The position numbers and the translations under genes are program-made. Positions 7,297-33,999 of a stretch of DNA of 35,879 nucleotides are shown piece after piece (the stretch's first letter is position 1; each line of letters begins with the position of its first letter). The stretch comes from Candidatus Geohabitans tengchongensis (GTDB lineage Bacteria; Sysuimicrobiota; Sysuimicrobiia; Sysuimicrobiales; Humicultoraceae): positions 1-35,879 of the forward strand of contig JAVKIH010000024.1 in NCBI GenBank assembly GCA_031459625.1, read 5' to 3'. The notes beneath the pieces are model-generated. The model ran no database searches. It was not told the origin of the DNA and was given only the letters and a program-made list of their open reading frames with translations.

Positions 7297-9672
7297 TCAG
7301 CCTGGGCCTCTTCGGTCCGCCGCTTCGTCCTCCGGCCGGTCCCGCAGCCACGCCAGCACGAGCGCGGGGGTCACGGGCAGGACGTCCACGTCCCGCCCCA
7401 GCGCGTCGCTGATGGCATTGGCCAGGCAGCCCACCGCGCCGATCGTCCCCGACTCCCCCACTCCTTTGAAGCCGCGTTCCGTGTAGGGCGAGGGCGTCTC
7501 CAGGTGGTGGACCTCGACCGGCGGCACCTCCGCCGCCGACGGCAGGAGGTAGTCCATGAAGGTCGCGGCGAGCGGCTGTCCCGCCGCGTCGTAGCGCAGC
7601 GCCTCGTAGAGCGCCTCCCCCAGGCCCTGCGCCACCCCACCGTGTGTCTGCCCCTCCACCAGCAGCGGGTTGAGCAGCGGCCCGCAGTCCTCGGCCACGA
7701 CGTAGCGCAGGACGCGCACGACGCCGGTCTGCGGGTCCACCTCCACCAGCGCCGCGTGCGCCCCGTTCCCGAAGGCCGCCGGCGGCGGGTCGTAGGTGAC
7801 GGCCGCCCCGAGCCCCGGCTCTTCGCCGCCGGCGAGGTAGCCCAGCGCCGGCACGTGCGCCGCCCGGGCCACGTCGCGCCAGGTGAGGGCGCGGGCCGGC
7901 GTCCCGCGGACGAAGAAGCGGCCGCCGTCCAGCACGACGTCCTCCGGGGCCGCCTCGAGCAGGTGAGCGGCGATGGCCACCGCCTTCGCCCGCACCCGCG
8001 CGGCGGCGCGCACGATGGCCCCGCCCGAGGCGACCAGCGCGCGGCTGGCAAAGGTGCCGCTCCCCTCCGGGGCCAGGTCGGTGTCCACCGGCGCCACCAC
8101 CACCAGCTCCGGGTCGATGCCGAGCTCGTCGGCCAGGAGCTGGGCGAAGGCGGTCTCGTGCCCCTGGCCCTGGGAGGGCGAGGAGGCCCACAGCCGCACC
8201 GTGCCGTCGGGCTCCACCTGCACGCGCGCGCCGTCGTAGCCGCGCATGTCGGTCATGCCGCGCCGCAGGAAGGTGCGCGACCCCATCCCCGTGAACTCGG
8301 TGAAGACGCTGAGTCCGATGCCCACCCGCCGGCCGGCCGCGCGCGCTTCGGCCTGGGCCCGCCGCGCCCCCGCGTAGTCGAACGCCTCCAGCACCGCCGC
8401 CAGCGTCTCGTGGAGGCGGCCGCTGTCGTAGACCAGCCCCGCCGGGTTGGTATAGGGGAAGGCCTCGGAGGGGATCAGGTTGCGGCGCCGCACCTCGGCG
8501 GGGTCGAGCCCCAACCGCGCAGCCACCTTGTCCACCAGGCGCTCCATCACCCACGCCGCCACCGCCATGCCCACCCCGCGGTAGGCGCCCAGCGGCGCCT
8601 TGTTGGTGGCGACAGCCAGCGCGCGGCAGGCATAGGCCTCCACCCGGTAGGGGCCGGTGAGGATGTTGGCCGCGGTCACCGGCTCGATGGCCACGGTGAG
8701 CGGGTAGGCGGAGTAGGCGCCGGCATCCGAGCACAGCGTCGCCCGCACCGCCAGCAGCCGCCCCGCCGCGTCGGCCGCGGCCTCGGCCTCGACCCACACC
8801 TCGCGGGCCTGGGTCATCGTCAGCAGGTTCTCGTGCCGGTCCTCCACCCACTTCACCGGGCGGCGGAGCCGCTGCGCCACGGCGCAGGTGACCAGGTCCT
8901 CGGGGTAGAGCATCATCTTCGGCCCGAACCCGCCGCCCACGTCCGGGACCACCACCCGCACCTGCGCCGCCGCCAGCCCCAGCCCGCGGGCGACCGCCTC
9001 CTTCAGGTGGTGGGGAGTCTGGGTGGAGGCCCAGACGGTGAGGCGCCCCGGCGGGTCCCACGCGGCGGCCACGCCCCGTCCCTCCAGCGGCGCGCCGGCC
9101 ACCCGGCTGTGGCGGAAGGTGCCGCGCACGACCACGGCGGCGCGGGCGAAGGCCGCCGCGACGTCGCCGGAGGCCACCTCGCGCTCCAGGAAGCGGTTGC
9201 CGGGGACGTCGGGGTGCAGCTGCGGGGCATCCGGGGCGAGGGCCGCGTCCAGGAAAGCCACCACCGGGAGCGGCTCGTACGTCACCGCCACGCGCTCGGC
9301 CGCGTCCTCGGCCACGTAGCGGTCGGCCGCGGCCACCACGGCCACGGGCTCCCCGACGAAGCGCACCACCTCCCGGGCGAGCGGCGGCCAGCTGCCGCCG
9401 CGGTAGCGGGCATCGCGCAACGCCGCGGTGATGGGGGCGAGCGCCAGGTCGGCGGCGGCGAAGACGGCGACCACCCCGGGGACGTCCAGGGCCGGTGCGG
9501 CGTCGATGGCGCGCACGCGGGCGTGGGCGTGCGGGCTGCGCACGAAGGCCAGGTGGAGCATGCCGGGCAGCGCCAGGTCGGCCAGGTAGCGGCCCTCCCC
9601 GCGCAGCAATCGGGGATCCTCGCGGCGCCGCACCGCCCGGCCGACCCAGGAGGTGGTGGCGGGCGCGCTCAC
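7297..9672 (-). CDS. Xanthine dehydrogenase family molybdopterin-binding large subunit (CoxL/CutL-like)
   Basis: RREDPRLLRGEGRY, VRSPHAHA, DVGGGFGPK, AYRGVG, QGQGHET, GTFASR, EGQTHGG, KGVGESG. Confidence 0.93.
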   Translation of the reverse strand: MSAPATTSWVGRAVRRREDPRLLRGEGRYLADLALPGMLHLAFVRSPHAHARVRAIDAAPALDVPGVVAVFAAADLALAPITAALRDARYRGGSWPPLAREVVRFVGEPVAVVAAADRYVAEDAAERVAVTYEPLPVVAFLDAALAPDAPQLHPDVPGNRFLEREVASGDVAAAFARAAVVVRGTFRHSRVAGAPLEGRGVAAAWDPPGRLTVWASTQTPHHLKEAVARGLGLAAAQVRVVVPDVGGGFGPKMMLYPEDLVTCAVAQRLRRPVKWVEDRHENLLTMTQAREVWVEAEAAADAAGRLLAVRATLCSDAGAYSAYPLTVAIEPVTAANILTGPYRVEAYACRALAVATNKAPLGAYRGVGMAVAAWVMERLVDKVAARLGLDPAEVRRRNLIPSEAFPYTNPAGLVYDSGRLHETLAAVLEAFDYAGARRAQAEARAAGRRVGIGLSVFTEFTGMGSRTFLRRGMTDMRGYDGARVQVEPDGTVRLWASSPSQGQGHETAFAQLLADELGIDPELVVVAPVDTDLAPEGSGTFASRALVASGGAIVRAAARVRAKAVAIAAHLLEAAPEDVVLDGGRFFVRGTPARALTWRDVARAAHVPALGYLAGGEEPGLGAAVTYDPPPAAFGNGAHAALVEVDPQTGVVRVLRYVVAEDCGPLLNPLLVEGQTHGGVAQGLGEALYEALRYDAAGQPLAATFMDYLLPSAAEVPPVEVHHLETPSPYTERGFKGVGESGTIGAVGCLANAISDALGRDVDVLPVTPALVLAWLRDRPEDEAADRRGPG

Positions 9673-9691
9673 CGGGGCCGGCCTCGGCGCC

Positions 9692-10402
9692 TCACAGGCC
9701 CAGGTAGGAGACGCGCACGTGGGGGTCGTCGAGCAGCTCGGCGCCGGTGCCGGAACGCACGATCCGCCCGTGCTCCATGACGTAGCCCTGGTGGGCGAGC
9801 GGCAGGGAGGCGTGGACGTTCTGCTCGATGAGCAGCACCGTCACCCCCTGGGCGTGGATCCGCCGGACCGTCTCCATGATGGCGCGCACCAGGGTGGGCT
9901 GCAGCCCCAGGGACGGCTCGTCGAGGGTGAGCAGCTCGGGGGCGGTCATCAGGGCCCGCCCCAGCGAGAGCATCTGCCGCTCCCCGCCGCTGAGGGTGCG
10001 GGCGAGCTGCCCCTGGCGCTCGGCCAGGCGCGGGAAGAGGTCGAAGACCTCGCGCAGGCGCTGCGCCTGCTGCGCCCGGGCCCGCGCCACGGCGGCGGCG
10101 ACGAGCAGGTTGTCCCGCACCGTCATCTCCGGGAAGACGCGGGCACCCTCGGGGCTCACGGCAATCCCCAGGCGCACGATCTCGTCGGGGCGCAGCCGGT
10201 CGATGCGTCGCCCGCGCCACAGCACCGCCGGAGCGGAACCGCGTGGCCGCAGCAGCCCCACGATGGCGCGCAGCAGCGTCGTCTTGCCGGCGCCGTTGGG
10301 CCCGATGAGCACCGTGACCGTCTGCGGCCGCACCTCCAGGGAGACGCCGCGCAGCACCGTCAGGTCCCCGTAGCCCGTGGTCAGGTCGCGTACCTCCAGC
10401 AC
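9692..10402 (-). CDS. ABC transporter ATP-binding protein (LivF-like)
   Basis: GPNGAGKTT, LSGGERQM, LDEPSLGL, IEQN. Confidence 0.93.
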   Translation of the reverse strand: MLEVRDLTTGYGDLTVLRGVSLEVRPQTVTVLIGPNGAGKTTLLRAIVGLLRPRGSAPAVLWRGRRIDRLRPDEIVRLGIAVSPEGARVFPEMTVRDNLLVAAAVARARAQQAQRLREVFDLFPRLAERQGQLARTLSGGERQMLSLGRALMTAPELLTLDEPSLGLQPTLVRAIMETVRRIHAQGVTVLLIEQNVHASLPLAHQGYVMEHGRIVRSGTGAELLDDPHVRVSYLGL

Positions 10403-10423
10403 GGCGCGCCTCCCGCCCCGCCC

Positions 10424-11143
10424 TCAGGCGAAGGCCTCCCCCAGGTAGGCCTTCACCACCTGCTCGTCGCGCATGACCCGGGCCGGCGGGCCGTCGGCCA
10501 GCTTGCGCCCGTGCGTGAGGACCACGACCCGCTCGGCGAGCGTCACCACGGTGCGCATGACGTGTTCGATGAGCAGCAACGTCCGTCCCCGGGCCCGCAC
10601 CTGCCGCAGCACCTCCACCATCTCGGCCGCCTCCGCCACCGTCAGCCCGGCCAGGTTCTCGTCCAGGAGGATCAGGCGCGCTCCGGTGGCCAGGGCGCGC
10701 GCCAGGTCGAGCCGCCGGCGTTCGGCGGTAGTGAGGCTGGCGGCGGGGGCGTCCGGTTTGGCCAGCCCGACCAGCTCCAGGCAGCGGACCGCCTCGGCGC
10801 GGGCCTCCCGTACCCCCAGGCCCCGGCCGTACATCGCCCCCACGGCCACATTCTCCCAGGCGCGCAGCCCCAGCAGCGGCTGGGGGATCTGGAAGGTCTT
10901 CACGATGCCCAGGCGGCAGACGCGGTGGGCGGGCAGCCCCGTGATGGGGCGACCCTGGAAGCGGATCGTCCCACCGGTCGGGGGGAGGAGGCCGGCGATC
11001 ATGTTGAACAGCGTCGTCTTGCCGGCGCCGTTGGGCCCGATGACGGCCACCACCTCACCCTCGTCCACACTGAGGGAGACGCGGTCCACGGCCACCAGCG
11101 CGCCGAAGGTGCGCGTGACGTCCCGGCACTCCAGCAGGCTCAT
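10424..11143 (-). CDS. ABC transporter ATP-binding protein (LivG-like)
   Basis: ATG at 11143 (MSLLECRD); GPNGAGKTTLFN, LLDE, IEHVM, KAYLG. Confidence 0.92.
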   Translation of the reverse strand: MSLLECRDVTRTFGALVAVDRVSLSVDEGEVVAVIGPNGAGKTTLFNMIAGLLPPTGGTIRFQGRPITGLPAHRVCRLGIVKTFQIPQPLLGLRAWENVAVGAMYGRGLGVREARAEAVRCLELVGLAKPDAPAASLTTAERRRLDLARALATGARLILLDENLAGLTVAEAAEMVEVLRQVRARGRTLLLIEHVMRTVVTLAERVVVLTHGRKLADGPPARVMRDEQVVKAYLGEAFA

Positions 11144-11144
11144 G

Positions 11145-12107
11145 TCACGACTCCGCCACCCGCCGTTCCGCCGGAACGGCGGGCCGGGCGCGGCGGCGCA
11201 GCCGCAGCCGCGCCAGCCCCACCACACCCTGCGGGAAGACGAGGGAGACGGCCATGATGACCAGCCCGATGATGATGAGGTAGGCGTAGAGCAACCGCGT
11301 GCCCAGGACCTCGGCCAGCACGACCAGCACGGCCGCGCCCAGGAGCGGACCGAAGGGCGTGCCCAGCCCGCCGAGGATCGCCATCACCACCATCTGGAAG
11401 GTGATGGTGGGGCCGAAGGCCTCGTTGGCGTTGATGTAGGTGAGCCAGTACCCCGCCGTCCCGCCCACCCAGGCGATGAGCACCGCGGAGAGGCAGTAGG
11501 CCCAGCGCTTGAGGGCCAGCACGTCGATGCCCGAGGCGGCGGCCGCCACCTCGTTCTCGCGGATGGCGCGCAACCCGTAGCCGAAGCGGGAGCCCTCCAG
11601 CCACAGGGAGGCGGCCAGCGCCAGCGCCAGGATGGCCAGCAGCACGTAGTAGAAGTACGTGGTCCCCGGGCCCAGCGGGAAGGTGATGCCGTGGCTCCCG
11701 CCGGTGAGGGTGAGGCCGGTCACGCGGTCGAAGGAGAGCGCCCCCTCGCGCAGCGCCTCGGCCAGGGCCAGCGTCCCCACGGCGAAGTAGGCCCCGCGCA
11801 ACCGCAGCGTGGGCGTGCCCACGACGTAGGCCACCAGGGCGGCCAGCACCCCGGCGGCGGCGAGCGCCGGCAGGAAGGGCCAGTGCGCCCGCGTGAGGAG
11901 CACGGCCACGGTGAACCCCCCGAGCCCGTAGTGCACCACCGGGCCGAGGTCGACCGGCCCCGCGTACCCCGCCAGCAGGTTCCACGCTGAGGCCAGCGCC
12001 CCCCACATGAAGATCACGGCCAGCAGCCGCACCAGGTAGGGGCCGGCCACCAGCGGGAGCAGGGCCAGCCCCGCCACCAGCGCCGCCGGCAGCCCCAGCC
12101 GCCTCAC
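11145..12107 (-). CDS. Branched-chain amino acid-type ABC permease (LivM-like)
   Basis: GTG at 12107; WNLLAGYAG, LRLRGAYFA, SRFGYGLRAIRENE, ILGGLGT. This is the 3' part of ORF 11145..14105. Confidence 0.9.
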   Translation of the reverse strand: MRRLGLPAALVAGLALLPLVAGPYLVRLLAVIFMWGALASAWNLLAGYAGPVDLGPVVHYGLGGFTVAVLLTRAHWPFLPALAAAGVLAALVAYVVGTPTLRLRGAYFAVGTLALAEALREGALSFDRVTGLTLTGGSHGITFPLGPGTTYFYYVLLAILALALAASLWLEGSRFGYGLRAIRENEVAAAASGIDVLALKRWAYCLSAVLIAWVGGTAGYWLTYINANEAFGPTITFQMVVMAILGGLGTPFGPLLGAAVLVVLAEVLGTRLLYAYLIIIGLVIMAVSLVFPQGVVGLARLRLRRRARPAVPAERRVAES

Positions 12108-12973
12108 TCGACCCGGCCCCGCCCGGTGATGCCCGCGGGGCGCAGCGAGAGCGTCACGTAGAGCAGCAGGAAGGCCACCATGAGCGAGAGCCCCGCCTCC
12201 AGGTAGGTCTCGGTGAAGGCCTGGGCCAGGCCGATGGCCAGCCCGCCGTAGAGGACCCCGGGGATGTAGCCCATCCCGCCCAGCACCACCACGGCGAAGG
12301 CGAAGAGGGTGTAGGTGAGCCCCATGTAGGGGTGGATGTTGGTGAAGTAGGCGACCAGCGAGCCGGCCGCGCCGGTCACCCCGACCCCGAGGGCCACCGT
12401 GAGGGCGAAGACGCGCCGGGTGTCGATGCCCGCCAGCTGCGCCATCTCCCAGTCCTGGGCCGTGGCGCGCATGGCCCGGCCCAGCGGGGTACGTGCCAGC
12501 AGCGCGGAGAGCCCCGCCACCATGAGCAGCCCGAGCCCACCGGCGACCAGGCGGGTGTAGGGGAGGACCACCTCTCCCAGGTGAAGGCTGCGGTCCAGGT
12601 AGGGGACGCTGAGGACGCGGTAGTCCGCCGACCACAGCCGCAGCGCCGCGTTCACCAGCACCAGCGAGAGACCGAAGGTGGCCAGCAGCGAGACGAGGAG
12701 CGGCGCCCCCACCGAGCGGTTCAGGACGAACCGCTGCAGCCCGTACCCGAAGGCGAACAGGAGCAGGAAGGCGACGGGCAGGGAGAGGAGGGGGTCCACG
12801 CCGTGGCTGCGGGCCAGCCAGTAGGTGGTGAAGGCGCCGAGCATCATCAGCTCGCCATGCGCGGCGTTCACGATCCCCGTGACCCCGAAGATCAGCGAGA
12901 GCCCCACGCCCGCGGCGGCGTAGACGCCGCCCAGCAGCACCCCGTTGGCCACCGCCTGGAGGAAGACCATCAC
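12104..12973 (-). CDS. Branched-chain amino acid-type ABC permease (LivH-like)
   Basis: GLSLIFGVTGIVNAAHGELMMLGA; TPLGRAMRA; VVLGGMG. Confidence 0.92.
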   Translation of the reverse strand: MMVFLQAVANGVLLGGVYAAAGVGLSLIFGVTGIVNAAHGELMMLGAFTTYWLARSHGVDPLLSLPVAFLLLFAFGYGLQRFVLNRSVGAPLLVSLLATFGLSLVLVNAALRLWSADYRVLSVPYLDRSLHLGEVVLPYTRLVAGGLGLLMVAGLSALLARTPLGRAMRATAQDWEMAQLAGIDTRRVFALTVALGVGVTGAAGSLVAYFTNIHPYMGLTYTLFAFAVVVLGGMGYIPGVLYGGLAIGLAQAFTETYLEAGLSLMVAFLLLYVTLSLRPAGITGRGRVE

Positions 12974-13036
12974 GGCGGGGCGCCCGCTCCTGCCTCGCGG
13001 CGCGGCCTGTCGCCGGCCAGCGCCCCCGGCCCCGGC

Positions 13037-14290
13037 CTAGCGGCGGTCCCAGGGGGGCATGGGGTAGCGCAGCGGCTTCGCCCCCTGCAGCTTGGGCCAG
13101 ACCAGGACCCCGCGGCCGTCCTGGATCTGCACGGCCAGCGGCGGCTTCAGCACGATGGCCCCGTCGGGCCCGAACTTCACCCGCCCGTACAGCGACTGGA
13201 AGTCCAGCCGGTGCATCTCCTCGGCCAGGCGCTCGCGGTCCTCCGCCGACAGCGGCGGCACCAGGTTGAGGTTCTGCACGGCGACCTGCTGGGCCACCGC
13301 GCAGGCCGTGGCCGCCACCTGGGTGTAGTCCGGCTCCTTCCGGTACTTCAGGCGGAAGCGCTCGTACCAGGTGCGGGAGGTGCCGAAGACCGGGTCGCGG
13401 TAGTAGAGCGAGGGTACCCACTCGGAGGCCCCCACGGCGTACTCGGCGTCCCGCCCCAGCTCCTTCACGAAGTCGGGGACGGTGGGTCCGAAGCTGAAGC
13501 CCACGCCCTTGGGGGCGTAGCCGACCTCCTTGGCCGCCTTCATCACCCGCAGGGAGTGGGCCAGCAGGCTGCCCACCAGGAGGACCTCCGGGTTGCGGCG
13601 CTTGACCTTCTGCAGGAGCGAGGTGTAGTCGGCGAGCGCCAGCGGGAAGATCTCGAAGTGGACGACGCGCACGCCGTGGTCCTGGAGCACCTTCCGGAAG
13701 CCCTCCGCGGAAAGCTTGGCGAAGAGGTGCTCGGCCCCGATGATGGCCGCGGTCTGGGGCTTGGGCCGGGCGTTCACGAAGACCTCGGCGACGGCGCGCA
13801 CCTCCTCGAAGGTCTTGTTGAGCGTGGCGAACGTAAACTTGAAGCCGCGCTCGAAGATGGGGTTGGCGCTGGCCGCGCCTGAGCAGTACGGGTACTTGTA
13901 CTTCTCCGCCACGGCGGTGGAGGCGAAGACGACGTTGCTGCCAAACCCCCCGAGCAGCAGGTCGACCCGGTCGACGGTGGCCAGGCGCTCGACCAGCTGG
14001 GCGCTCTTGGCCTCGCTGGACTCGTCGTCGTAGACGATCAGGCGCACCGGGTACCGTCCGCCGCGGGACTCGATGCCGCCCCGCTCGTTCACCGCCTCGG
14101 CCCACAGCTCGTAGGCCTCCTTGAGCAGCGTGCCATCCCGGCCGAAGATGCCGCTCAGGGCCACCGCCACGCCGATCCGGAACTCCCGCGCCTGAGCGGC
14201 CGTGGGGCGCACCGCGACCAGCGGCAGGACGAGCCCCACCGCCAGGGCCAGCGCTGCCAGCCGTCTCGCCAACGTGGTCCTCACGCGCAT
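13037..14290 (-). CDS. HAAT/Liv-type ABC transporter substrate-binding protein
   Basis: GGAGG RBS and ATG at 14290; signal peptide ending near TAAQA; VNERGGI...YDDES. Confidence 0.9.
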   Translation of the reverse strand: MRVRTTLARRLAALALAVGLVLPLVAVRPTAAQAREFRIGVAVALSGIFGRDGTLLKEAYELWAEAVNERGGIESRGGRYPVRLIVYDDESSEAKSAQLVERLATVDRVDLLLGGFGSNVVFASTAVAEKYKYPYCSGAASANPIFERGFKFTFATLNKTFEEVRAVAEVFVNARPKPQTAAIIGAEHLFAKLSAEGFRKVLQDHGVRVVHFEIFPLALADYTSLLQKVKRRNPEVLLVGSLLAHSLRVMKAAKEVGYAPKGVGFSFGPTVPDFVKELGRDAEYAVGASEWVPSLYYRDPVFGTSRTWYERFRLKYRKEPDYTQVAATACAVAQQVAVQNLNLVPPLSAEDRERLAEEMHRLDFQSLYGRVKFGPDGAIVLKPPLAVQIQDGRGVLVWPKLQGAKPLRYPMPPWDRR

Positions 14291-14346
14291 CTTCCTCCCC
14301 TCCCCTGCCACATCGTGGCCGGCTGTGCCGACCGCCGCTCCGCCGG

Positions 14347-14985
14347 CTAGGGCGCGTCCACCTCCACCCGCACCGGCGTGGAGCGCCCGCCGTTGCACGG
14401 GCCGATCTCCAGCGGGCAGACGGAGAGCGCCACCACGAGCGGCATCTCCGCCCGGAACTCGACGTAGTCCCCCGGCCGGCTGGCCGGCAGGCCGATCACC
14501 CACCGCCGGTTAGCGCAGTCGTGCTCGTACCGCATGTTGATGTCGAAGGTGTCGGGGATGTCCTCCGGCAGCAGGCCGTAGGGCGCCACCACCCGGCTGA
14601 TGATCTCGTGGCAGCCGTCCTGGGGACCCACGCCCAGCTGGACCTCGTAGAGGAAGCGGTTGCACATCCGGTTGTGGCAGTCGTGCACGCCCTTCTCGGG
14701 CGCCGTCTCCTTGAGGATCGTCATCATGGGCCGGCAGAGCGTCGAGCGCAGGACGTCGCCCTCGGTGAGCCGGTCGCGGGGGATGTACTCGCCGACGCGG
14801 GCGGGGACGTACCGCGTGCGCGAGTAGGAGGTGGAGAGCTTCTCCCGCAGGTTGTCGCGGTTGAAGAGGGCCATGTCCACCACCTGCTGGCCCTCCAGGT
14901 CCACCACACGCAGGATCTGACCCGCCTCGAGCTCCAGGGCCAGCCCGTGCTTGCCCGGCACCACCTGCTCGAAGACCCGCCTCAC
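14347..14985 (-). CDS. DUF1989 / urea carboxylase-associated family protein
   Basis: GTG at 14985; LRVVDLEGQQVVD, HDCHNRMC, GCHE, GDYVEFRAEMPLVVALSVCP. Confidence 0.88.
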   Translation of the reverse strand: MRRVFEQVVPGKHGLALELEAGQILRVVDLEGQQVVDMALFNRDNLREKLSTSYSRTRYVPARVGEYIPRDRLTEGDVLRSTLCRPMMTILKETAPEKGVHDCHNRMCNRFLYEVQLGVGPQDGCHEIISRVVAPYGLLPEDIPDTFDINMRYEHDCANRRWVIGLPASRPGDYVEFRAEMPLVVALSVCPLEIGPCNGGRSTPVRVEVDAP

Positions 14986-15791
14986 CGCCGTCCCCGCACG
15001 TCCATCAGGGCCTTGCGCTGCCCGCCGTCGAGGGTGATGAGCGCCCCGTTCATGAAGCTGGCCCGGGGCGAGGCCACGAAGACCGCCACGTCGGCCACCT
15101 CCTCCGGGGTGCAGATGCGCCCGAGCGGGATCGACGCGGTGGCCAGCCGGGAGGCCTCCTCCGTGGAGAGCCCCATGTCCCGCGCGTAGGCGGCCACGAG
15201 GCCGTCCCACCGGTCGGTGGCCACCGGTCCCGGGTTGATGGCGTTCACCAGGATGCCGTGGGGGCCGTACTGCTCGGCCAGGGCCAGGGTCACCGCCAGG
15301 TCGGCCGCGTTGGCGGCACTGGGCGTCAGCTCCCAGAACGCCGGCTTGATCCCGTCGTTGCCGACGATGTTCACGATGCGCCCCCCGCCGGCGCGCAGCA
15401 TGTGGGGGATGACCGCCTTCATGAAGCGGATGTAGCCCAGGAACTTCGTCTGCAGGGCCAGGGCCCAGTGCTCCTCGGTCAGGTCCAGGAGCAGGCCGCC
15501 CGGGGCAGCTCCGGCGTTGTTCACCAGGATGTCCAGGCGGCCGAAGTGGGCGGCCGCCTGGTCGGCGATGCGCGGCGGGTCCTCGGGCCGCATGACGTCG
15601 CCCGGGAAGGGGACGACCTCGGCGCTGGTGGCCTGGCGGATCTCGCCAGCGACGCGCTCGAGCCGCTCCGCGTCGCGGGCGACGATCCCCACCCGCGCAC
15701 CCTCCCTGGCCAGGGCCACGGCCACCGCCCGGCCGATGCCCTTGCTGCCGCCGGTGACCAGCGCCACCTTGCCGCCCAGCCCCAGGTCCAT
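14982..15791 (-). CDS. SDR family oxidoreductase
   Basis: ATG at 15791; VTGGSKGIG, LVNNAG, NAINPGPVATDR, DGG. The usual YxxxK is not canonical (PSAAN). Confidence 0.9.
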   Translation of the reverse strand: MDLGLGGKVALVTGGSKGIGRAVAVALAREGARVGIVARDAERLERVAGEIRQATSAEVVPFPGDVMRPEDPPRIADQAAAHFGRLDILVNNAGAAPGGLLLDLTEEHWALALQTKFLGYIRFMKAVIPHMLRAGGGRIVNIVGNDGIKPAFWELTPSAANAADLAVTLALAEQYGPHGILVNAINPGPVATDRWDGLVAAYARDMGLSTEEASRLATASIPLGRICTPEEVADVAVFVASPRASFMNGALITLDGGQRKALMDVRGRR

Positions 15792-15810
15792 GGGCGCCTC
15801 CCCTACGAGC

Positions 15811-15850
15811 CTAGTTTCAATTACATTGAAGTTCAATTAAACGAAGCTAG
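15811..15850. promoter_or_regulatory. AT-rich operator/promoter with TTCAAT-N3-ATTGAA inverted repeat and a second half-site
   Basis: 15816 TTCAAT-TAC-ATTGAA 15830, then G-TTCAAT-TAA-ACGAA; about 25 nt upstream of the SDR start. Confidence 0.7.
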
Positions 15851-15907
15851 AGCGGCCTCCTGCCGGCGGGGCCTCCCGGCGCGGGCAGGCTGTCGTCGTC
15901 AGAAACC

Positions 15908-16777
15908 TTACGGACGCTCACCCGGGCGACGGGCACCCACGGCCCGGCCACGTCCGCCGGCGATCAGCTCGGTGTACAGCTCCGGCCGGCGGTCGCCGAT
16001 GAGGTCCATCTCCGCCGTGGCTCGCGGGGCGGGGCCGCGCACCTCCGCGGTCAGGACCTCCTCCCGGTCCGGCGCGGCCGGGCCCGCCCGGACCATTCCG
16101 TGCGGGTCGACGATCAGGCTGCACCCCAGCGTGCGCACCCCGCCGTCCTGCCCCGCGCGGTCGGCGCAGGCCACCCAGAGCCGGCTGCCGTAGGCGTATC
16201 CCGCCGCCAGGTAGGCGGCCCCGCACCACCCGCGCGCGTCCCACGGCTGGGGCTTGCCGCGGTCGGTCCAGGTGGTCGGGACGGCCAGCACCTCCGCGCC
16301 CCGCAGGACGAGGAGGCGCACCGCCTCCGCGAAGCGCAGGTCGTAGCAGATCAGGGGGGCGAGCCGGCCCACGGGCGTCTCCCACACCTCGAAGCGGTCG
16401 CCCGGCGTGAAGACCTCACGCTCGAAGTGGTAGAGGTGCACCTTCCGGTAGACACCCCGGAGGCCCCGGGGACCGACCAGGACGGCGCTGTTGCGGAGGT
16501 CCCGGCCGTCGCGTTCGGGCAGGCCTCCCAGCACCCACATCCCCGTCTCCCGGGCCACCGCGTGCCAGGCCCGGACCGTGGGGCCGTCGAGGGGTTCTGC
16601 GGAGGGTGCCACCTCCTCGCGGGTGCGGAAGTCGTAGCTGACCGTGCACAGCTCCGGCAGGACAGCCAGCCGGGTGCGCTCCGCCGCGGCCTGGCGCAGC
16701 AGCCGGACGGTGCGTTCCCGCATCGTCGCCGCGTCCGCCCACGGCGCCGCCAGCTGGACGACCGCCAGGCGGCTCAC
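15908..16777 (-). CDS. Carbon-nitrogen hydrolase (nitrilase superfamily amidase)
   Basis: Catalytic triad motifs LPE, YRKVHL, ICYDLRF. Confidence 0.92.
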   Translation of the reverse strand: MSRLAVVQLAAPWADAATMRERTVRLLRQAAAERTRLAVLPELCTVSYDFRTREEVAPSAEPLDGPTVRAWHAVARETGMWVLGGLPERDGRDLRNSAVLVGPRGLRGVYRKVHLYHFEREVFTPGDRFEVWETPVGRLAPLICYDLRFAEAVRLLVLRGAEVLAVPTTWTDRGKPQPWDARGWCGAAYLAAGYAYGSRLWVACADRAGQDGGVRTLGCSLIVDPHGMVRAGPAAPDREEVLTAEVRGPAPRATAEMDLIGDRRPELYTELIAGGRGRAVGARRPGERP

Positions 16778-16793
16778 GACGACAGGGCGCCCG

Positions 16794-17231
16794 TCACGCC
16801 GCCCACGGGGGCGGGCCGAGCGGCTGGGTCAGCTCCACGAGCACGCCCCCGGCGGGGTCGCGCAGGAACGCGATCAGCGTGTTGCCGGCGCCCCGGCGCG
16901 GCGCCTCGTCGGCCAGGGCCACGCCGCGGGCCCGCAGCGCTGCCAGCGCCGCGGCCAGGTCGTCCACGGCCAGGGCGACGTGCTGGACCCCCTCGCCATG
17001 CGTGCGCAGCCACTCGGCGTTCCACCCCTGGTCGGTGAGCGGCTCGATGAGCTCGATGAGCGTCTCCCCGACCGGGATGAAGGCGATCCGGAGCTCGCCC
17101 GGCCCGTACTCCTCCCAGGCGCGCACCCGCAGCCCCAGCGCGGCCAGCCGGGCGGCGGTGGCGCGCGCGTCCCGGACGAGGACGCCCACGTGGTGCACTC
17201 CCCGGACGGCCAGCGGCGGAGCGTCGCTCAC
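16794..17231 (-). CDS. VOC family protein (methylmalonyl-CoA epimerase-like)
   Basis: HHVGVLV, IELIEP, GEGVQHVALAVDD, GGVLVEL. Confidence 0.85.
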   Translation of the reverse strand: MSDAPPLAVRGVHHVGVLVRDARATAARLAALGLRVRAWEEYGPGELRIAFIPVGETLIELIEPLTDQGWNAEWLRTHGEGVQHVALAVDDLAAALAALRARGVALADEAPRRGAGNTLIAFLRDPAGGVLVELTQPLGPPPWAA

Positions 17232-17271
17232 GGCGGGGAGGCGGGCCGGCGCGCGCCCCCAACGCGCACGG

Positions 17272-17937
17272 TCACGGCACGAGGGCGGCCACGCGGGCCG
17301 GCCCGCCGTTGCCGCCCACCACGGGCACCGGCATCGCCAGCAGCGTGAACTCCCGGACGGGGATGGCGTGCAGGTTGATCAGGTTCTCGATCAGGCAGAC
17401 GTTGGCGCCCAGCGTGATCAGGTGCACCGGGTAGCGCGGCTGCCCCGGCGGTTTGGGCGGCCCGCCGTCCACGGCGAAGTCCACCGCCAGCGCCCGCACC
17501 CCGCACTCCACCAGCCACTCCGCCGCGTCGGTGGCCAGGTAGGGGTTGTCGCGGTAGAAGCGCGGGTCGCGCCAGTGCTCCTCGGCCCACCCGCTCCAGA
17601 GCACCGCCCGGCGGTCGCGCAGCTGCGCGGGGTCGCCCACCGCCTGGCGCAGCGCCTCCACCGTGAAGGGCTGGCCCGGCCGGGCGTGCATGCGCAGGTC
17701 CACCAGGACCGCCGGCCCGCACAGCCACTCCAGCGGCACCCGGTCGATGGTCAGCCCGCCCGGGATGAAGTGGTAGGGGGCGTCGATGTGCGTCCCGGTG
17801 TGGATGCTGAAGGTGGCGAACCCGGTGGAGAGGCCGTGCAGCTCGTGGTGGTGGATGGGGACGTAGTAGATGTGCGGGTGGCCGGGGACCGGCTCCACCC
17901 CCGGCCCCCAGGGGATCGTCAGGTCGATCAGGCGCAT
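17272..17937 (-). CDS. Cyclase family metal-dependent hydrolase (kynurenine formamidase-like)
   Basis: MRLIDLT; HTGTHIDAPYH; PVH; IENLINL; GGPARVAA. Confidence 0.9.
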   Translation of the reverse strand: MRLIDLTIPWGPGVEPVPGHPHIYYVPIHHHELHGLSTGFATFSIHTGTHIDAPYHFIPGGLTIDRVPLEWLCGPAVLVDLRMHARPGQPFTVEALRQAVGDPAQLRDRRAVLWSGWAEEHWRDPRFYRDNPYLATDAAEWLVECGVRALAVDFAVDGGPPKPPGQPRYPVHLITLGANVCLIENLINLHAIPVREFTLLAMPVPVVGGNGGPARVAALVP

Positions 17938-17993
17938 CCGCACCGCCCCGCCGCCCGGCCCCCCCCCGGACGGCCGCCGAAGCCGCGCGGCCC

Positions 17994-18995
17994 TCATGCC
18001 CGCCCCTCCGCACCCGCCGCCTCGGACGGCTCGACGAGGAGGCGGCCGTCCCGCACCACCACCTCGCCGTCCAGCTCGACCGTCGGCCGCAGCAGCAGCC
18101 CGTCCAGGTGGAGCTGGCTCGTCACCACCCCGCCGATGACGTGGTTGTCCCCGATGGCCACGTGCACCGAGCCCGCCACCTTCTTGTCCTCCGTCATCGA
18201 GCCGATGAGCCGGGCCCGGTCGTTGGTGCCGATGGCGAACTCGGCGATGTTGGTGGCGTGCTCGTCGGCCTCGGCGACCAGGCGGCGCAGCGCCTCCGCC
18301 GAAGCCCCGCCCTCGATGGCCACCACGCGCCCCGCCCGCACCGTCATGCGGATGGGTGCGTCCAGACGCCCCAGGTTGTCCATGGTGTGCTCGACGACCA
18401 GCGTCCCCTCGGCAGTGCCCTCCACGGGGGCGATGGCCGCCTCGCCGTCCGGCATGGCGGCGAAGGTGCCGGGCCCCCCCACCCGGCCGGTGAGGGCGAT
18501 GGCGCGGCGGCCGGCCACGCTCATCACCAGGTCGGTCCCCGCCGGGGTGCGCACGCGCACGCGCTCGGCGGCGGTGAGGCGCCGCGCCACCTCGCGGGTC
18601 ACCCGGTCGATGCGGTCGTAGTCGGCCAGCATGGCGCCGTGGGTCATGATCTCCTCGGTGACCCCGCGCAGCACCAGCACCCGCGCGCCCGCCTGGAGCG
18701 CCTCGCGGGTGGCGTCGGTGTGGGTCATGGCGTAGGTGACCGGCTGGATGACCACATGGGCCGCCTTCATGGCCGCGCCCACGGGGGCGGGGGGGTCGTT
18801 GCCGTGGGCGGCGCGCGGCAGCATGGTCACCAGCACCGGCTCCGCGCCCACCTCGCGCACCGCCTCGGCGATGGCCTCGGCGATCCGCTGCGTCTGGGTG
18901 TCGCAGGCCACCACGACGACTTCGCCGGGCTGGACCCGCGCGCAGGTGCGGACGACGGTGCGGACGCTCTCACGCAACGAGACGGCGACGGCCAT
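17994..18995 (-). CDS. M29/aminopeptidase T-like metalloprotein
   Basis: Own RBS (GAGAGGAGG) and ATG at 18995; TPAGTDL, MPDGEA, AEFAIGTN, VHVAIGDN, HLDG. Confidence 0.8.
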   Translation of the reverse strand: MAVAVSLRESVRTVVRTCARVQPGEVVVVACDTQTQRIAEAIAEAVREVGAEPVLVTMLPRAAHGNDPPAPVGAAMKAAHVVIQPVTYAMTHTDATREALQAGARVLVLRGVTEEIMTHGAMLADYDRIDRVTREVARRLTAAERVRVRTPAGTDLVMSVAGRRAIALTGRVGGPGTFAAMPDGEAAIAPVEGTAEGTLVVEHTMDNLGRLDAPIRMTVRAGRVVAIEGGASAEALRRLVAEADEHATNIAEFAIGTNDRARLIGSMTEDKKVAGSVHVAIGDNHVIGGVVTSQLHLDGLLLRPTVELDGEVVVRDGRLLVEPSEAAGAEGRA

Positions 18996-19121
18996 GCGAC
19001 CTCCTCTCACGGTCGACGGACGACATGGGCGCTCACTTCCTTCGCCGCCTCCGGCGTCGCTCCCTGGCGGTGTGCAGTGGGGGACTGCGCGGCACGACGC
19101 TGGGGCCGCCGGGGGCCGCGA

Positions 19122-19610
19122 CGGCAGGTGGGGGTTGGCACCGGCCAGGAAGGCCGCGATCTCGTCGGCGTTGCGGCCGGCGCGGTCGTCGGCGGCTTTC
19201 CGGCGGGCCTCACTGCCGGCCAGCGTGGCCGAGAGCCGGTCCTGCACGGCCTGGACGTGGCCGGTGAAGAGAGTGCCGAACTTCGCCGCCGCATCGGTGC
19301 CGTAGAAGGGGGCGATGGCCTGGCCGATGGCGCGGGCGTTCTGCAGGGCCCGCTCCTCCGCGACGCGGGCCGCCGCGCGCTCTCCCAGGCGGGTGGCCAC
19401 GACAGAGGCGCGCGACCAGACGATGTGGTCGACGAGCAGCCCGCGCAGGGCCATGCGCAGCTCCGCCACCGTCAGCGTCTCGGGCGCCGCGCGGACCGGC
19501 GCCGGTACCGTGGTGACCGCCACCACGGCCGCAGCCGCGAGCAGGGCGGTGGCGGCCAGCGCGATGGTCATGCTCCTCGAGCGGACGAGCCTCAGCACGT
19601 GCGTCCCCAT
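19122..19610 (-). pseudogene. Exported His-containing helical protein, apparently C-terminally truncated
   Basis: AGGAGGAGG RBS and signal peptide; DHIVWSR, PFYG, TGHVQAV, NADEIAAFLAGANPHLP; then non-coding-like sequence with no stop before the next gene. Confidence 0.6.
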
Positions 19611-19676
19611 GGCGTTCCTCCTCCTGTTGCCGGATTCCCCGCTGGTCGGCCCCAGGCGGCGGAGCGCCGCACCGAC

Positions 19677-20549
19677 TCAGTGCGCCCGACCCTCACCTCC
19701 TTTCCGACCCTGCCGCGCATCCTGCAGGGCGCGGCGCAGGTGCCGCAGCCAGGCGCCGGCCGCCGGCAGACGCCGGGCGGCCTCGGGCCGGTCCATCTGC
19801 GCCGGAGGGACGCCCAGCGCGTCGAGCGTCCGTCCCAGCGCCACGCTGTAGCGCAAGTACCAGGTGACGAGGTCCACCAGGACACGGTGGCGGCTGCGCA
19901 CCGCACCGGCCTGGTCGGGATGGGCGCCGATCTCGGCCCCGAAGACCTCCGCGCCGTCGCTGACGAGAACGAGCCACCGCCCGGCGCGCTCGGGCGGCAC
20001 CCGGTACCGGTGGAGGGTCCCCACGCACCCACCGCACGGCTCCGGGCAGGCCTCCAGACAGAGCGTGGTGACGCGCACCCCCCGCCGGCGCGCCGCCGCC
20101 AGCGCACCGGCCAGCGCCCGGGCCTCGGCGGGGGTGAGGGCGATCCACAGCACGCGCCTGGTGGCCTCCACCTGCGCCCTGGCCTGCTCGAGGATCCGGT
20201 CGTAGCCGCGCACGTTCCAGGCCACGTCCTCAGACCGGGCGGGGCGGACGCGGGTCAGCGCGCGGCGCGCCTCCACGGCGTGGCGCTGGAAGGCGGCTGC
20301 GAGCCGGCCGATCAGCTCGGTCGGCGGGACGGGGGCGTATTGCACCCCCTCAGGGGTCTGCAGGCGGCGGACGGCCCCCCGGGACTCAAGACGGGCCAGG
20401 ACGGTGTAGACGTTCGGGCGGGGAATGGCGCTGGCCCGGGCGACCTCGTACCCCGTGGCGGGGCTGTGCCGGAGGAGGGTGACGTAGACTCGGGCCTCGT
20501 ACGGGCTGAACCCCAGGGCCTCCAGGTGCCGTTCCGGGTGGGCCGCCAT
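19677..20549 (-). CDS. TrmB family transcriptional regulator with Cys cluster
   Basis: LGFSPYEARVYVTLL, TGYEVARASAIPRPNVY wHTH; CLEACPEPCGGC in the effector domain. Confidence 0.88.
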   Translation of the reverse strand: MAAHPERHLEALGFSPYEARVYVTLLRHSPATGYEVARASAIPRPNVYTVLARLESRGAVRRLQTPEGVQYAPVPPTELIGRLAAAFQRHAVEARRALTRVRPARSEDVAWNVRGYDRILEQARAQVEATRRVLWIALTPAEARALAGALAAARRRGVRVTTLCLEACPEPCGGCVGTLHRYRVPPERAGRWLVLVSDGAEVFGAEIGAHPDQAGAVRSRHRVLVDLVTWYLRYSVALGRTLDALGVPPAQMDRPEAARRLPAAGAWLRHLRRALQDARQGRKGGEGRAH

Positions 20550-20570
20550 CGACCGCCCCCAGGGTAATGG

Positions 20571-20592
20571 AGTAGTTATGAAAGCAACTACT
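20571..20592. promoter_or_regulatory. Palindromic operator AGTAGTT-N8-AACTACT
   Basis: Perfect 7-bp inverted repeat in an AT-rich patch 21 nt upstream of the TrmB ATG. Confidence 0.7.
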
Positions 20593-20712
20593 ATGCTGCC
20601 GCCCCGGGGCACCCCTGTCAACGCCCCCGTCGGCGCCCGCCTTCCGAGGCCCGGGCAGGCGCCCGCCCCGGCGGGTGCGGGGCCCGGGGACCGCTCAGCC
20701 CGGGGGTGAGGG

Positions 20713-21303
20713 TCAACCTGCCTCGAAGGGTCGGCCCACGGCCAGCACGCGGCGCAGGGGCGCTTCCAGGCTGTGGTAGTGGGGGTCGGGCTCGGCGCCG
20801 ACGGCGTCCAGGACCTTGCTGAAGAAGCTGCGGACCGAGGCGGCCAGCGCGATGTCCAGGATCTCCTCGTCGGTGAAGCCGTGGCGGCGCAGCGTCTCGA
20901 TGTCCTCGGGCGTCACCCGCCAGGCGTGCAGGGCGATCTTCTCCGCGTAGGCCATCATCGCCACCTCCTCCGGCGGCAGCCCCGCCGTGCGGTAGTTGCG
21001 GGCGATGGCCTCCACCTGCTCGGCGCTGAAGAGTTGGGCACGGAGCACCGCTCCGTGAGCGACCATTCAGTAGGTACAGCGCAGGGCGCGGGCCGCGGCG
21101 ATGGTGACCAGCTCGTACCGCCGCAGGTCCATGTGCGCGCGGATGGCGTCCCGCAGCGCCCGCCACGCGGCGATGACCTCCGGTCGCAGGCTGAGGGCCT
21201 GCGTGGAGTGGGCCGCCGCCCCGTCCCGACGGCGGTCCTCCTCGTACAGGTCGCGCAGCAGCCCGGTCGCCTCCTCGGGGGGCACGGTGCGGATGAAGGC
21301 CAT
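20713..21303 (-). CDS. AhpD/carboxymuconolactone decarboxylase-like peroxidase-related protein, probable selenoprotein (CxxU), 196 aa
   Basis: GGAGGTG RBS and ATG at 21303. ORFs 21067..21312 and 20713..21066 are in one frame, separated only by TGA: RRYELVTIAAARALRCTY-U-MVAHG...LRRHGFTDEEILDI. SECIS-like hairpin downstream. Confidence 0.85.
21039..21057 (-). promoter_or_regulatory. Putative bacterial SECIS element
   Basis: mRNA: UGA AUGGUCGCU CACGGAGC GGU GCUCCGUG; perfect 8-bp stem with a GGU loop starting 17 nt after the UGA. Confidence 0.75.
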
Positions 21304-21357
21304 GACGTTCACCTCCGGGGTGGAGTTGGGAGCGACGGTGCGGGCCGGGGAAGGCCG

Positions 21358-24300
21358 TCAGTGCGCCGCGATCCCGAGCAGCGTCTCCGCCTGCCGTCCG
21401 AGCGGCCCCGCCCGCAGCTGGGCGCGCACGGCGTCGTCGGCCATGGCCGCGGCCACCGCCTCGACCCGCGCCCGCGCCTGCGCAGCCTGCGCGCGGGCGC
21501 CGGTGCCGTCCCCCCGGGCGGCCAGCACCGCACCGCGCGCCAGCGCCGCCTCCGCCTCCAAGAGCCGGAAGCCCAGTCCGCGGAGCACGCCGTCGACGCG
21601 GTCGAGATGGCCCACCGCGGGCCCGAACCGCCCGCCCGCCGTACAGCAGGCAGCCAGCGCGATCCCCGCATGGGCGGCCGCCGCGGGCAGCCACCCGGAC
21701 GGGATCTGCGCCAGGACGGCCCGCGCCAGCGCCTCCGCCCGGCCGACGTCGTCCGCCAGCGCCAGCGCGTGGGCCACGTCGGCGGCGGCGATCAACGTGC
21801 TGGGTGAGACGATGGGCTGACCCACCGCCTCGACCACCTCGTCCACGAACGGCGAGTCCCGCTCCCCGCGCTCCACGGCCAGCAGCGCGTGCGCCGCGGC
21901 CAGGGTGGGCCGGTGGACGTCGCCCGGGCGCAACGCGCCGGGCGGGAACTCGTCGACCAGGACCAGCACCGGCCGCAGGTCGCCCAGCGTCCGGTGGAGC
22001 TGAACGCAGTTGAAGAACGTCACGGGGTTGGTGTAGCCGATCTCGCGTGAGAGCTGCAGGGAGGTCTCCAGGTGGCGCGCCGCCGCCTCCAGGCAGGCCA
22101 GGCCGAGCTCGGCCATCCCGCTGAACTGGGCGATCCACATCCGCCGCCGACGGTCGCCGATCTCCTCGGCCAGGCGGTCGGCCTCCTCCAGCGCCGCCAG
22201 CGCCTCCACCGCGCGGCCGCCCAGCCACAGGTAGAGCCCCCGGTAGCTGCGCGCGGTGGCCTCGCGGGCCCGGTCCCCGCCCGCCCGGGCCTCGCCGATC
22301 CCGCGCTCCGTGAGGTCGAGGGCGCCGGGCAGGTCGCGCACCAACCAGCGGACCGTGGAGAGGAGGTTCAGGACGCCCGCCACCGCCCCATGGTCCCCGA
22401 GCGCCTCGAAGATCGGCAGGGCGGTACGGGCCAGCTGCTCCGCCTCACCGGGACGGTTCTGGTCCCAATGCGCGTTGGCGGTCTCCAGCAGACACAGCCC
22501 TTCGGTGCGGCGGTCCCCCACCGTGGCGGCCAGGCGGCGGGCCTCCTCGTAGCCGGCGATGATCTCCGGGATCGGGACGCGCCGGCGCCGGTGGTCCAGC
22601 CGGACCTGCTCGAAGCGCAGCGCCGGCTCCACCTCCCGGCCGCCTGCCGTCTGCGGGAGGAGGCGCAGGGTCTCGGCGATGTCCGCCTCCGCGCCGTCGT
22701 ACTCCCCCAGCAGCTGGCGGGCCTCGGCGCGGTGGCGCAGCAGGCGCAGGCGGAGGTCCGGAGCGAGGTCGACCCCCAGCGCCAGGGCCCGGGTGTAGGC
22801 GTCGGCGGCGCGCCGGTTGGCGAAGAGCCGGCGGGCCCGGTCCCCGGCCCGCACCAGGTACTCCAGCGCCCGGGCCGGTTCGCGGGCGCTCGTCCAGTGG
22901 TAGGCCAGCAGGTCGAGGAGCTCCTCGGTGCGCCCGGCGGCGGTGCGCTCCACCCAGGTCGCTACCTGCGCATGGGTGCGCGCCCGCACCGCCCGGGGCA
23001 GGGTGGCGTAGGCGACCTCGCGCGTCAGGATGTGCTTGAAGATGAACTCCCGGTCGCCGGCCAGCGTCGACTCCGCCCGCTCCCGGATCAGATCGCGCCC
23101 CTCCAGCCGGTCGAGGATCCCCGCGAGCGGCACCGTCTCCTCCACCAGGGCCCGCAGCGTCCCCATCCAGAAGATGCGCCCCACGACCGCGGCCTGCTGC
23201 AGGACGCGCTTCTCGTCGTCCGGCAGGCGGTCGAGCCGGGCGGCGATCACGCCCTGCACCGTGTCGGGCAGGGGGAGGTCGTCCAGCGCCCGACCGACCT
23301 GCCACCGGTCCCCCTCGGCGGTCAGCACGTCCTGCTCGACCAGCAGCCGCACCATCTCTTCCATGAAGAAGGGGTTCCCCTCCGCCGCGTCGGCGATGCG
23401 GGCGGCCAGGCGCTCGGGCAGCGTCGGGGCCCCCGGCAGGAGGGCGGCGAGGAGGCGGCGGGCCTCGGTGGCGTCCAGCGGGCTGAGGTCGATGCGGGTG
23501 GCGTCGCGGGCGGTCCCGCCCCAGTGGGGGCGCCGCTCCAGCAGCTCCGGACGGGCCGCTGCCAGGATGAGCACTGGGACCTCCTGCAGGCGGGAGGCGG
23601 TGTAGTCCTGGAGGTCCAGCAACCCCTCGTCGCCCCAGTGGAGGTCCTCCACCACGAGCACGAGCGGCCGCTGCCGCGCCCGCGCCTCCAGGTAGCGGCG
23701 CCAGGAGAGGAACGCCTCCTCGCGCGCGCTGCGGGGGTCGTAGGCGGCGACGGCCGAGCCCGGAAAGACCAGCCCGATGAGGAAGCCCAGCGCCGCCGCC
23801 ACCGTGTCGGCCTCGTCGGGGAGGCGCTGCGCCACGGCCGCGCGCAGCTTCTCCCGCGCCGCGTCCTCGGGGTCGTCGTCCCGGATCTGCGCGTCCTGCT
23901 TGAGGATCTCGGCCACCGCCCAGAAGGCCAGCCCCTCCCCGTAGGGGAGGCAGCGCCCCGTGCCGATGGCCGGCGTTTCCGGCAGGGCGCGCAGCAGCCC
24001 CACGAACTCCTGCTGCAGCCGCGACTTCCCCACGCCGGCGGGCCCGAGGACCGTGACCAGGTGGGCGCGACGCTCCGTCACCACCCGGTCGTACAGGCGC
24101 AGCAGGAGGTCGAGCTCGCCGGTGCGCCCGATCAGCGGGGCACGCCGCCCCGCCGGCGCGCCGGGACGCGTCCGCAGCCCCACGACCTCCCAGGCCGGGA
24201 CCGGCCGCTCCTTGCCCTTCAACGCCAGCGGCCCCAGCGGCTCGGTACGGGCGCCCATGAGGATGGCCCCCGGACGGCCGTACTGCTGGAGCCGGGCCGC

Positions 24301-33923: not shown

Positions 33924-33999
33924 TCCGCGGTAGCTCAACTGGTAGAGCGTCCGGCTGTTAACCGGAGGGTTGCAGGTTCGAGTCCTGCCCGCGGAGCCA
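33924..33999 (+). tRNA. tRNA-Asn (GTT)
   Basis: 76 nt; acceptor stem TCCGCGG/CCGCGGA, D-arm GCTC/GAGC, anticodon stem TCCGG/CCGGA with loop CTGTTAA, T-loop GGTTCGAGTCC, encoded CCA. Confidence 0.97.

Follow-up and report, generated by a model that had tools for sequence, protein, structure and literature searches.

The window, a stretch of 35,879 nucleotides, carries on its minus strand one intact gene for an AhpD-like protein, whose internal TGA is very likely read as selenocysteine (Sec). Taken as a whole, the best explanation (probability roughly 0.68) is a Sec-decoded enzyme of the AhpD fold, predicted to act as a hydroperoxide or protein disulfide reductase. The gene belongs to the catalogued family of AhpD-like CxxU selenoproteins, and nothing defining sets it apart from that family. 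Its elements are the following:

21312..21316, minus strand: GGAGG, Shine-Dalgarno-like by sequence, 8 nt before the ATG at 21303
20713..21303, minus strand: coding sequence of the 196-residue AhpD-like (TIGR01926 / COG2128) protein, with one TGA taken as read through
21112..21114, minus strand: Glu64, predicted proton-relay glutamate, invariant in 9 of 9 alignment rows and spaced as in the available part of PMC3141380
21076..21078, minus strand: Cys76, first residue of CxxU and predicted resolving cysteine, present in 54 of the 56 loci with TGA and in 21 of the 72 with Cys
21067..21069, minus strand: in-frame TGA, predicted selenocysteine 79 (TGA in 56 and TGC or TGT in 72 of 128 loci)
21039..21057, minus strand: SECIS-type hairpin within the coding region, with an 8-bp stem and the 3-nt loop GGT (21049-21047)
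21055..21057, minus strand: His83, predicted proton-relay histidine, invariant in the 9-row alignment (available part of PMC3141380)
20713..20715, minus strand: terminal TGA, a real stop; homologs terminate close to this point, P0078 at the same residue

The gene starts at ATG 21303, passes the in-frame TGA (21069-21067) at codon 79 and ends at the TGA of 20715-20713, and the read-through product carries the motif ELVTIAAARALR-C76-T-Y-U79-MVA-H83. A plain ORF caller cuts it into 21067-21312 (81 residues, from an upstream in-frame GTG start) and 20713-21066 (117 residues), and the public record P0078, which stands alone, is 93% identical to this second half. A sequence-only reading of this DNA had joined the two frames into one in-frame gene of 196 residues, leaving the strand unstated; the minus-strand product bears this out, passing TIGR01926 and taking an AhpD-type fold, and the plus-strand translation was rejected as the gene. 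That reading had also seen no ribosome-binding site before the second ATG, and on inspection of the sequence nothing like GGAGG precedes ATG 21066, directly after the TGA. No internal stop other than codon 79 was found in the gene, and GC3 is 0.96 before the TGA and 0.93 after it.

Sequencing error had been named as a possible refutation. The stretch 19400-22400 is unbroken, with zero differing letters in the contigs of four of four sequencing runs compared, all with shares of at least 0.1. They come from one study, from which this DNA may itself derive, and are therefore not independent. One run, labelled RNA, gave a single 13.7-kb contig over the whole stretch; its depth is flat, and it does not count as evidence of expression.

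The family assignment rests on both profiles and structure. The read-through product scores 93.4 bits against the TIGR01926 cut-off of 81.8 (85.9 bits with the stop left in place), passes TIGR00778 and matches PF02627. It scores only 16.4 bits against the 191.95 of TIGR00777, AhpD proper, and its weak matches to the same core in NF041238 (AhpD_rel_CFYUT; 33.8 bits, cut-off 175) and NF053654 (YciW-related; 31.7 bits, cut-off 310) lie far below membership. An AlphaFold model, built from the 9-row alignment with Cys placed at 79, reached a pLDDT of 95 and superimposes on 2PRR, 6K40 and 2OYO, which the protein also matches by sequence, with TM scores of 0.82-0.83 at 28-29% identity. Its helices 60-73 and 77-90 form a helix-turn-helix holding the relay E64, C76, Y78, U79 and H83, of which Glu64, Tyr78 and His83 are conserved. 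The spacing "E-x-C" given in the sequence-only reading has to be corrected, the actual form being E-x11-C-x-Y-C/U-x3-H.

Compared with the wider set of solved structures 2PRR, 6K40 (from D. radiodurans), 2OYO, 3C1L and 2PFX, the protein shares the fold (TM 0.77-0.83), the motif E-x11-C-x-Y-C-x3-H and a length of about 195 residues; unlike it, those proteins have Cys in place of Sec, are 22-29% identical and are mostly uncharacterised in function. Five relay positions of M. tuberculosis AhpD and P. aeruginosa PA0269 map to Glu64, Cys76, Tyr78, Sec79 and His83 at 16-25% identity, with Glu64 corresponding to PA0269 Glu36 and M. tuberculosis Glu118, and His83 to PA0269 His55 and M. tuberculosis His137 (available part of PMC3141380). 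In M. tuberculosis AhpD the motif lies near the C-terminus and the gene shares an operon with ahpC, whereas the gene described here has no ahpC neighbour. The subclade is about 28% identical to solved members and belongs to a 73%-GC lineage found in hot-spring metagenomes; an ESM Atlas search with the relative P0018 matched CMD-family clusters alone.

Selenoproteins of this kind have been described before. The available parts of earlier surveys report 27 AhpD-like CxxU selenoproteins in 2005 (PMC1088965), two in genomes (PMC1794560) and 299 sequences counted as "AhpD-like 1" (PMC2398784), and the available part of PMC13326102 has an AhpD-like selenoprotein family as the BSepDB example page. 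The statement that Sec forms of AhpD-like proteins are predicted and little characterised agrees with Table 1 of PMC13188914, which in its available portion lists "AhpD-like protein, TIGR01926, CxxU" as predicted and not experimentally verified, and our literature search found no biochemical study of a Sec AhpD. A Cys homologue from Deinococcus is a possible AhpE reductant (available part of PMC6300522). The gene resembles the catalogued family in passing TIGR01926, in its CxxU motif with Sec second and in an in-frame SECIS that fits the consensus; it differs in forming a separate subclade from a 73%-GC hot-spring lineage, a subclade that may already be included in paper supplements or in BSepDB. 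The work thus corrects an annotation, that of a gene split by ORF callers and present in public databases as its second half alone. It also extends by one member, likely heat-tolerant, a widespread family that is without bench verification according to the available part of the PMC13188914 table and our literature search. Sec and Cys forms that pair up in nature, about 60% identical and with a SECIS that is still there or has decayed, make a handy set for asking what selenium adds.

To follow the TGA column we drew on 41 relatives, 10 loci from a genome scan, 80 metagenome loci (the best of 387 confirmed matches) and 94 genomes of the class; 128 loci were left after dropping nine duplicates and one match without the column. 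The sequence-only reading had placed the TGA on the second Cys of the family motif, and the results agree: column 79 is TGA in 56 loci, TGC in 61 and TGT in 11, with neither TAA nor TAG in any, and the TGA loci reach down to 21% identity. Relatives that all carry TGC or TGT, named there as grounds for doubt, were thus not what we found. The E cut of the 128-locus set left out some weak matches; two of these were examined, and one, the partial match L031, had TTT at the column. Within the class the close form occurs in 18 genomes, and every one of them has TGA at the column.

Position 76 is less constant, being Cys in 75 of the 128 loci, and the first Cys is kept by nearly all TGA carriers (54/56) but by a minority of Cys carriers (21/72). 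A Cys-only clade of 43 rows, nested among the Sec forms (e.g. L079-L095, L103-L125), has mostly lost it (S/H/N-x-x-C) and dominates the close Cys loci, just 8 of 51 of which retain it. A strict rule of first-Cys loss in Cys forms was rejected, CxxC being present in 92 of the 120 top database proteins. In eight loci of the 43-row clade a 2OG-Fe(II) oxygenase-like gene was seen by eye directly upstream. Some Cys relatives (e.g. L050, L058) retain a broken remnant of the hairpin, which suggests Sec-to-Cys reversion, although the trees are quick and midpoint-rooted and the direction of Sec/Cys change is not proven by them. Two public records, P0022 and P0168, show Trp at Sec columns, likely from TGA translated under a Trp-reading code.

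Decoding of UGA requires a SECIS, an element that the sequence-only reading had called for and had not identified. A hairpin begins 10 nt after the TGA, with its GGT loop at +18; it also encodes H83-G-A-V-L-R, and the His83 codon forms the foot of its stem. With 8 bp, GGT at +18 and -12.5 kcal/mol, it fits the consensus in the available part of PMC13188914 (stem 4-16 bp, loop 3-9 nt with G among its first two nucleotides, distance from the UGA 16-37 nt, MFE <= -7.5). In the set of 97 close loci, 46/46 TGA carriers and 0/51 Cys carriers have a stem that closes at +18 (loop 3 or 6) with five pairs or more, by a rule fixed after viewing the data. A scan of all 128 loci that applied the published limits on loop, spacing and stem found dG <= -7.5 in 51/56 TGA against 7/72 Cys loci, and dG <= -5 in 56/56 against 15/72. 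On a quick tree with the motif masked, hairpin and TGA show six changes of state; well-supported branches give three independent pairs only, all concordant (sign test p 0.25).

The stem was also compared at constant peptide. Where the peptide is HGA-x-L, 42 of 47 loci with TGA have the stem, against 0 of 19 with Cys; since it tracks the TGA at a fixed peptide, codon choice and not protein sequence makes the stem. The gene has 11 rare codons, four of them among codons 81-90, and synonymous reshuffling (20000 draws) produced the 8-bp stem in 1.1%. Covariation was assessed in 46 standard-register rows, with 10 TGA rows in other registers set aside: A-U becomes a G-U wobble in 14, both sides change in two, and all loops begin with G, in a hairpin whose sequence hardly varies within the subclade. 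Shuffle z-scores of the hairpin alone are weak (-0.9 to -2.0), and the case is carried by the comparative tests. In six relatives (L063, L066, L069, L072, L073 and L102) the 3' arm has moved by one codon, giving a 6-nt loop with G second and keeping a 5-6 bp stem, with a matching peptide change from HGAVLR to HGAVLL or HGAVVL.

The machinery that the sequence-only reading had expected elsewhere in the genome is present in this assembly, which is 94% complete. Contig C23 holds selA and selB above their cut-offs and, 1.5 kb after selB, a tRNA-Sec (selC) that passes the Rfam score; selD, also above cut-off, lies on C1 and has its own in-frame TGA and hairpin. Of all 46818 TGA triplets of the genome, 75 were flanked by coding-like codons in both directions; six of the 75 resemble selenoproteins by eye (the AhpD-like gene, SelD, PDO, glutaredoxin, ArsC and a methyltransferase), the rest being mostly ordinary gene ends by eye. 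Likely selenoproteins of known kinds are the PDO at C34:9464 (+), which passes TIGR02187, the glutaredoxin/Uxx-star-like protein at C1:333700 (-), the ArsC-type arsenate reductase at C12:267392 (-), with a weak 5-bp hairpin, and SelD at C1:5930 (+).

Among class genomes, selA occurs in 18/18 with the close TGA form. It is also found in 77/94 overall and in both Cys-carrier genomes tested, and its presence therefore discriminates little. For the same two Cys-carrier genomes, a Sec-to-Cys change following loss of the Sec machinery is unsupported. The distant TGA carrier G029, a genome 72% complete, gave no selA match, and in the TGA-form carrier G096 (genome of L038) selA appears in two pieces at C2:182884-184214, possibly through an assembly error or a frameshift.

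Judged from these comparisons and from established bacterial Sec decoding, the TGA of codon 79 is almost certainly translated into selenocysteine, assisted by the downstream hairpin. SelB-GTP-Sec-tRNA would bind the G-containing loop and insert Sec at position 79. By analogy with M. tuberculosis AhpD and PA0269, the protein is probably a hydroperoxide/disulfide reductase working through a Cys76-x-x-Sec79 centre. The Sec79 selenolate, aided by a Glu64-His83-water relay, may attack either a peroxide or the disulfide of a peroxiredoxin; Cys76 would resolve the intermediate to a selenenyl-sulfide, and a thioredoxin-fold protein would re-reduce it, for which the Sec-PDO and Sec-glutaredoxin of the genome are candidates.

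The invariance of position 79 (Cys or TGA in 128/128 loci), set beside the 75/128 with Cys at position 76, supports Sec79 as the nucleophile. In M. tuberculosis AhpD it is likewise the second Cys, Cys133, that attacks AhpC, while in B. thailandensis AhpD the first Cys is the more important one (available part of PMC6626918), and Sestrin2 keeps the first alone (available part of PMC4674687). The reactive Cys thus varies within the superfamily, as these last two favour the first. PA0269 is merely a weak H2O2 reductase (available part of PMC3141380).

That the selenolate acts instead on a small organic substrate, in reductive dehalogenation as by Bmp8 or in repair of chlorinated or modified thiols, is a less likely reading. 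Bmp8 is an AhpD-fold debrominase with reductive dehalogenation chemistry, and our literature search for a Bmp8 paper found none that was relevant. It is matched by sequence (E 1.8e-7) and by fold (6OHI and 6OHJ, TM 0.70-0.71 at 17-18% identity), one-thiol chemistry would fit the 43-member Cys clade, and no AhpC/TSA gene adjoins the AhpD-like gene. However, the peroxidase-related 2PRR, 6K40 and 2OYO are structurally closer, the Sec forms retain Cys76 in 54 of 56 cases, and the surroundings of the close loci show no conserved genes for halogen chemistry or biosynthesis. In a stronger version the whole subclade would have no antioxidant role and would use its selenium as Bmp8 uses its thiol chemistry, for reductive dehalogenation or another reaction with a single nucleophile, and its Cys-reverted single-cysteine descendants would keep the chemistry without selenium; it finds a parallel in the Sec-dependent thyroid deiodinases and appears improbable.

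Sec decoding itself has weaker competitors. A real stop, leaving two small proteins (78 and 117 residues), a pseudogene or a sequencing error, is very improbable: genes here usually stop at TGA, this one's own end included, and an ATG directly follows codon 79, but the same TGA stands at the same column in 56 loci of widely differing identity with no further internal stops, the hairpin is tied to it, the second half has no ribosome-binding site, the contigs of the four runs of that one study agree, and in the model a stop would part Cys76 from His83 inside one helix. That the TGA encodes Trp or Gly by a variant code, or Cys via a special tRNA, is scarcely credible despite the Trp in P0022, given that both Trp residues of the gene are encoded by TGG, that so few genomic TGA triplets look coding on both sides, that the sole UCA-anticodon tRNA found is the tRNA-Sec beside selAB, and that the 72 non-TGA loci always have Cys and never Trp or Gly.

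In the window, the AhpD-like gene lies 54 nt from an upstream adenylate-cyclase/AAA/TPR protein and is followed by a TrmB-type regulator. No flanking ORF matched any of the 96 other close loci, in a comparison limited by short contigs and by flanks of 1.5-4 kb, and in consequence the neighbourhood indicates neither partner nor substrate. The six PF00578 (AhpC/TSA-type) matches of the genome are all on other contigs. A search of 20400-21600 for sites resembling promoters or terminators came back empty, and an Rfam search of the window returned a tRNA as its sole match.

The TrmB-type regulator gene starts at 20549 on the minus strand; some 20 nt upstream of it, at 20571-20592, an AT-rich inverted repeat with arms of 7 bp and a spacer of 8 nt was noted by eye and is a possible operator. 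Elsewhere, 7297-19610 (-) holds a co-oriented catabolic cluster of an M29 peptidase, a cyclase/arylformamidase-like protein, a nitrilase-family hydrolase, an SDR, a DUF1989 protein, a branched-chain-type ABC transporter and a subunit of a xanthine/CO-dehydrogenase-family molybdoenzyme, none of which passes a specific NCBIfam cut-off. Near the contig end, a large serine recombinase ORF (33958-35499, minus strand) runs with its 3' end into the tRNA-Asn at 33924-33996 (+), which likely marks the edge of an integrated element.

Outside the window, the methyltransferase of the TGA scan (C10:13426-14184, minus strand; L154:927-1685) is a class I SAM enzyme with W-S-L-U-C and a 9-bp hairpin, and passes no NCBIfam cut-off. 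It appears more novel than the AhpD-like gene and seemingly unrelated to it: a link between the two found no support, with 5 of 18 carriers overlapping against 4.8 expected from 25/94 (hand count). The WSL-UU-type motif is absent from the covered portion of Table 1 of PMC13188914, and a literature search was also without a match. Thirty class loci were fetched (including relatives L159-L182, L186 and L187), comprising 24 with TGA-TGA, two with TGA-Cys, one with Cys-TGA and three weak generic matches; leaving the last three aside, 27/27 share one nearly invariant hairpin sequence. The adjacent TGA codons likely encode Sec-Sec, served by one conserved hairpin for both. Full-length database homologs (n=17) carry WSLCC in 16 cases and WSLWW in one, and a DNA pattern search found the double-TGA form in 23 of 94 class genomes, against 0 for the reversed control.
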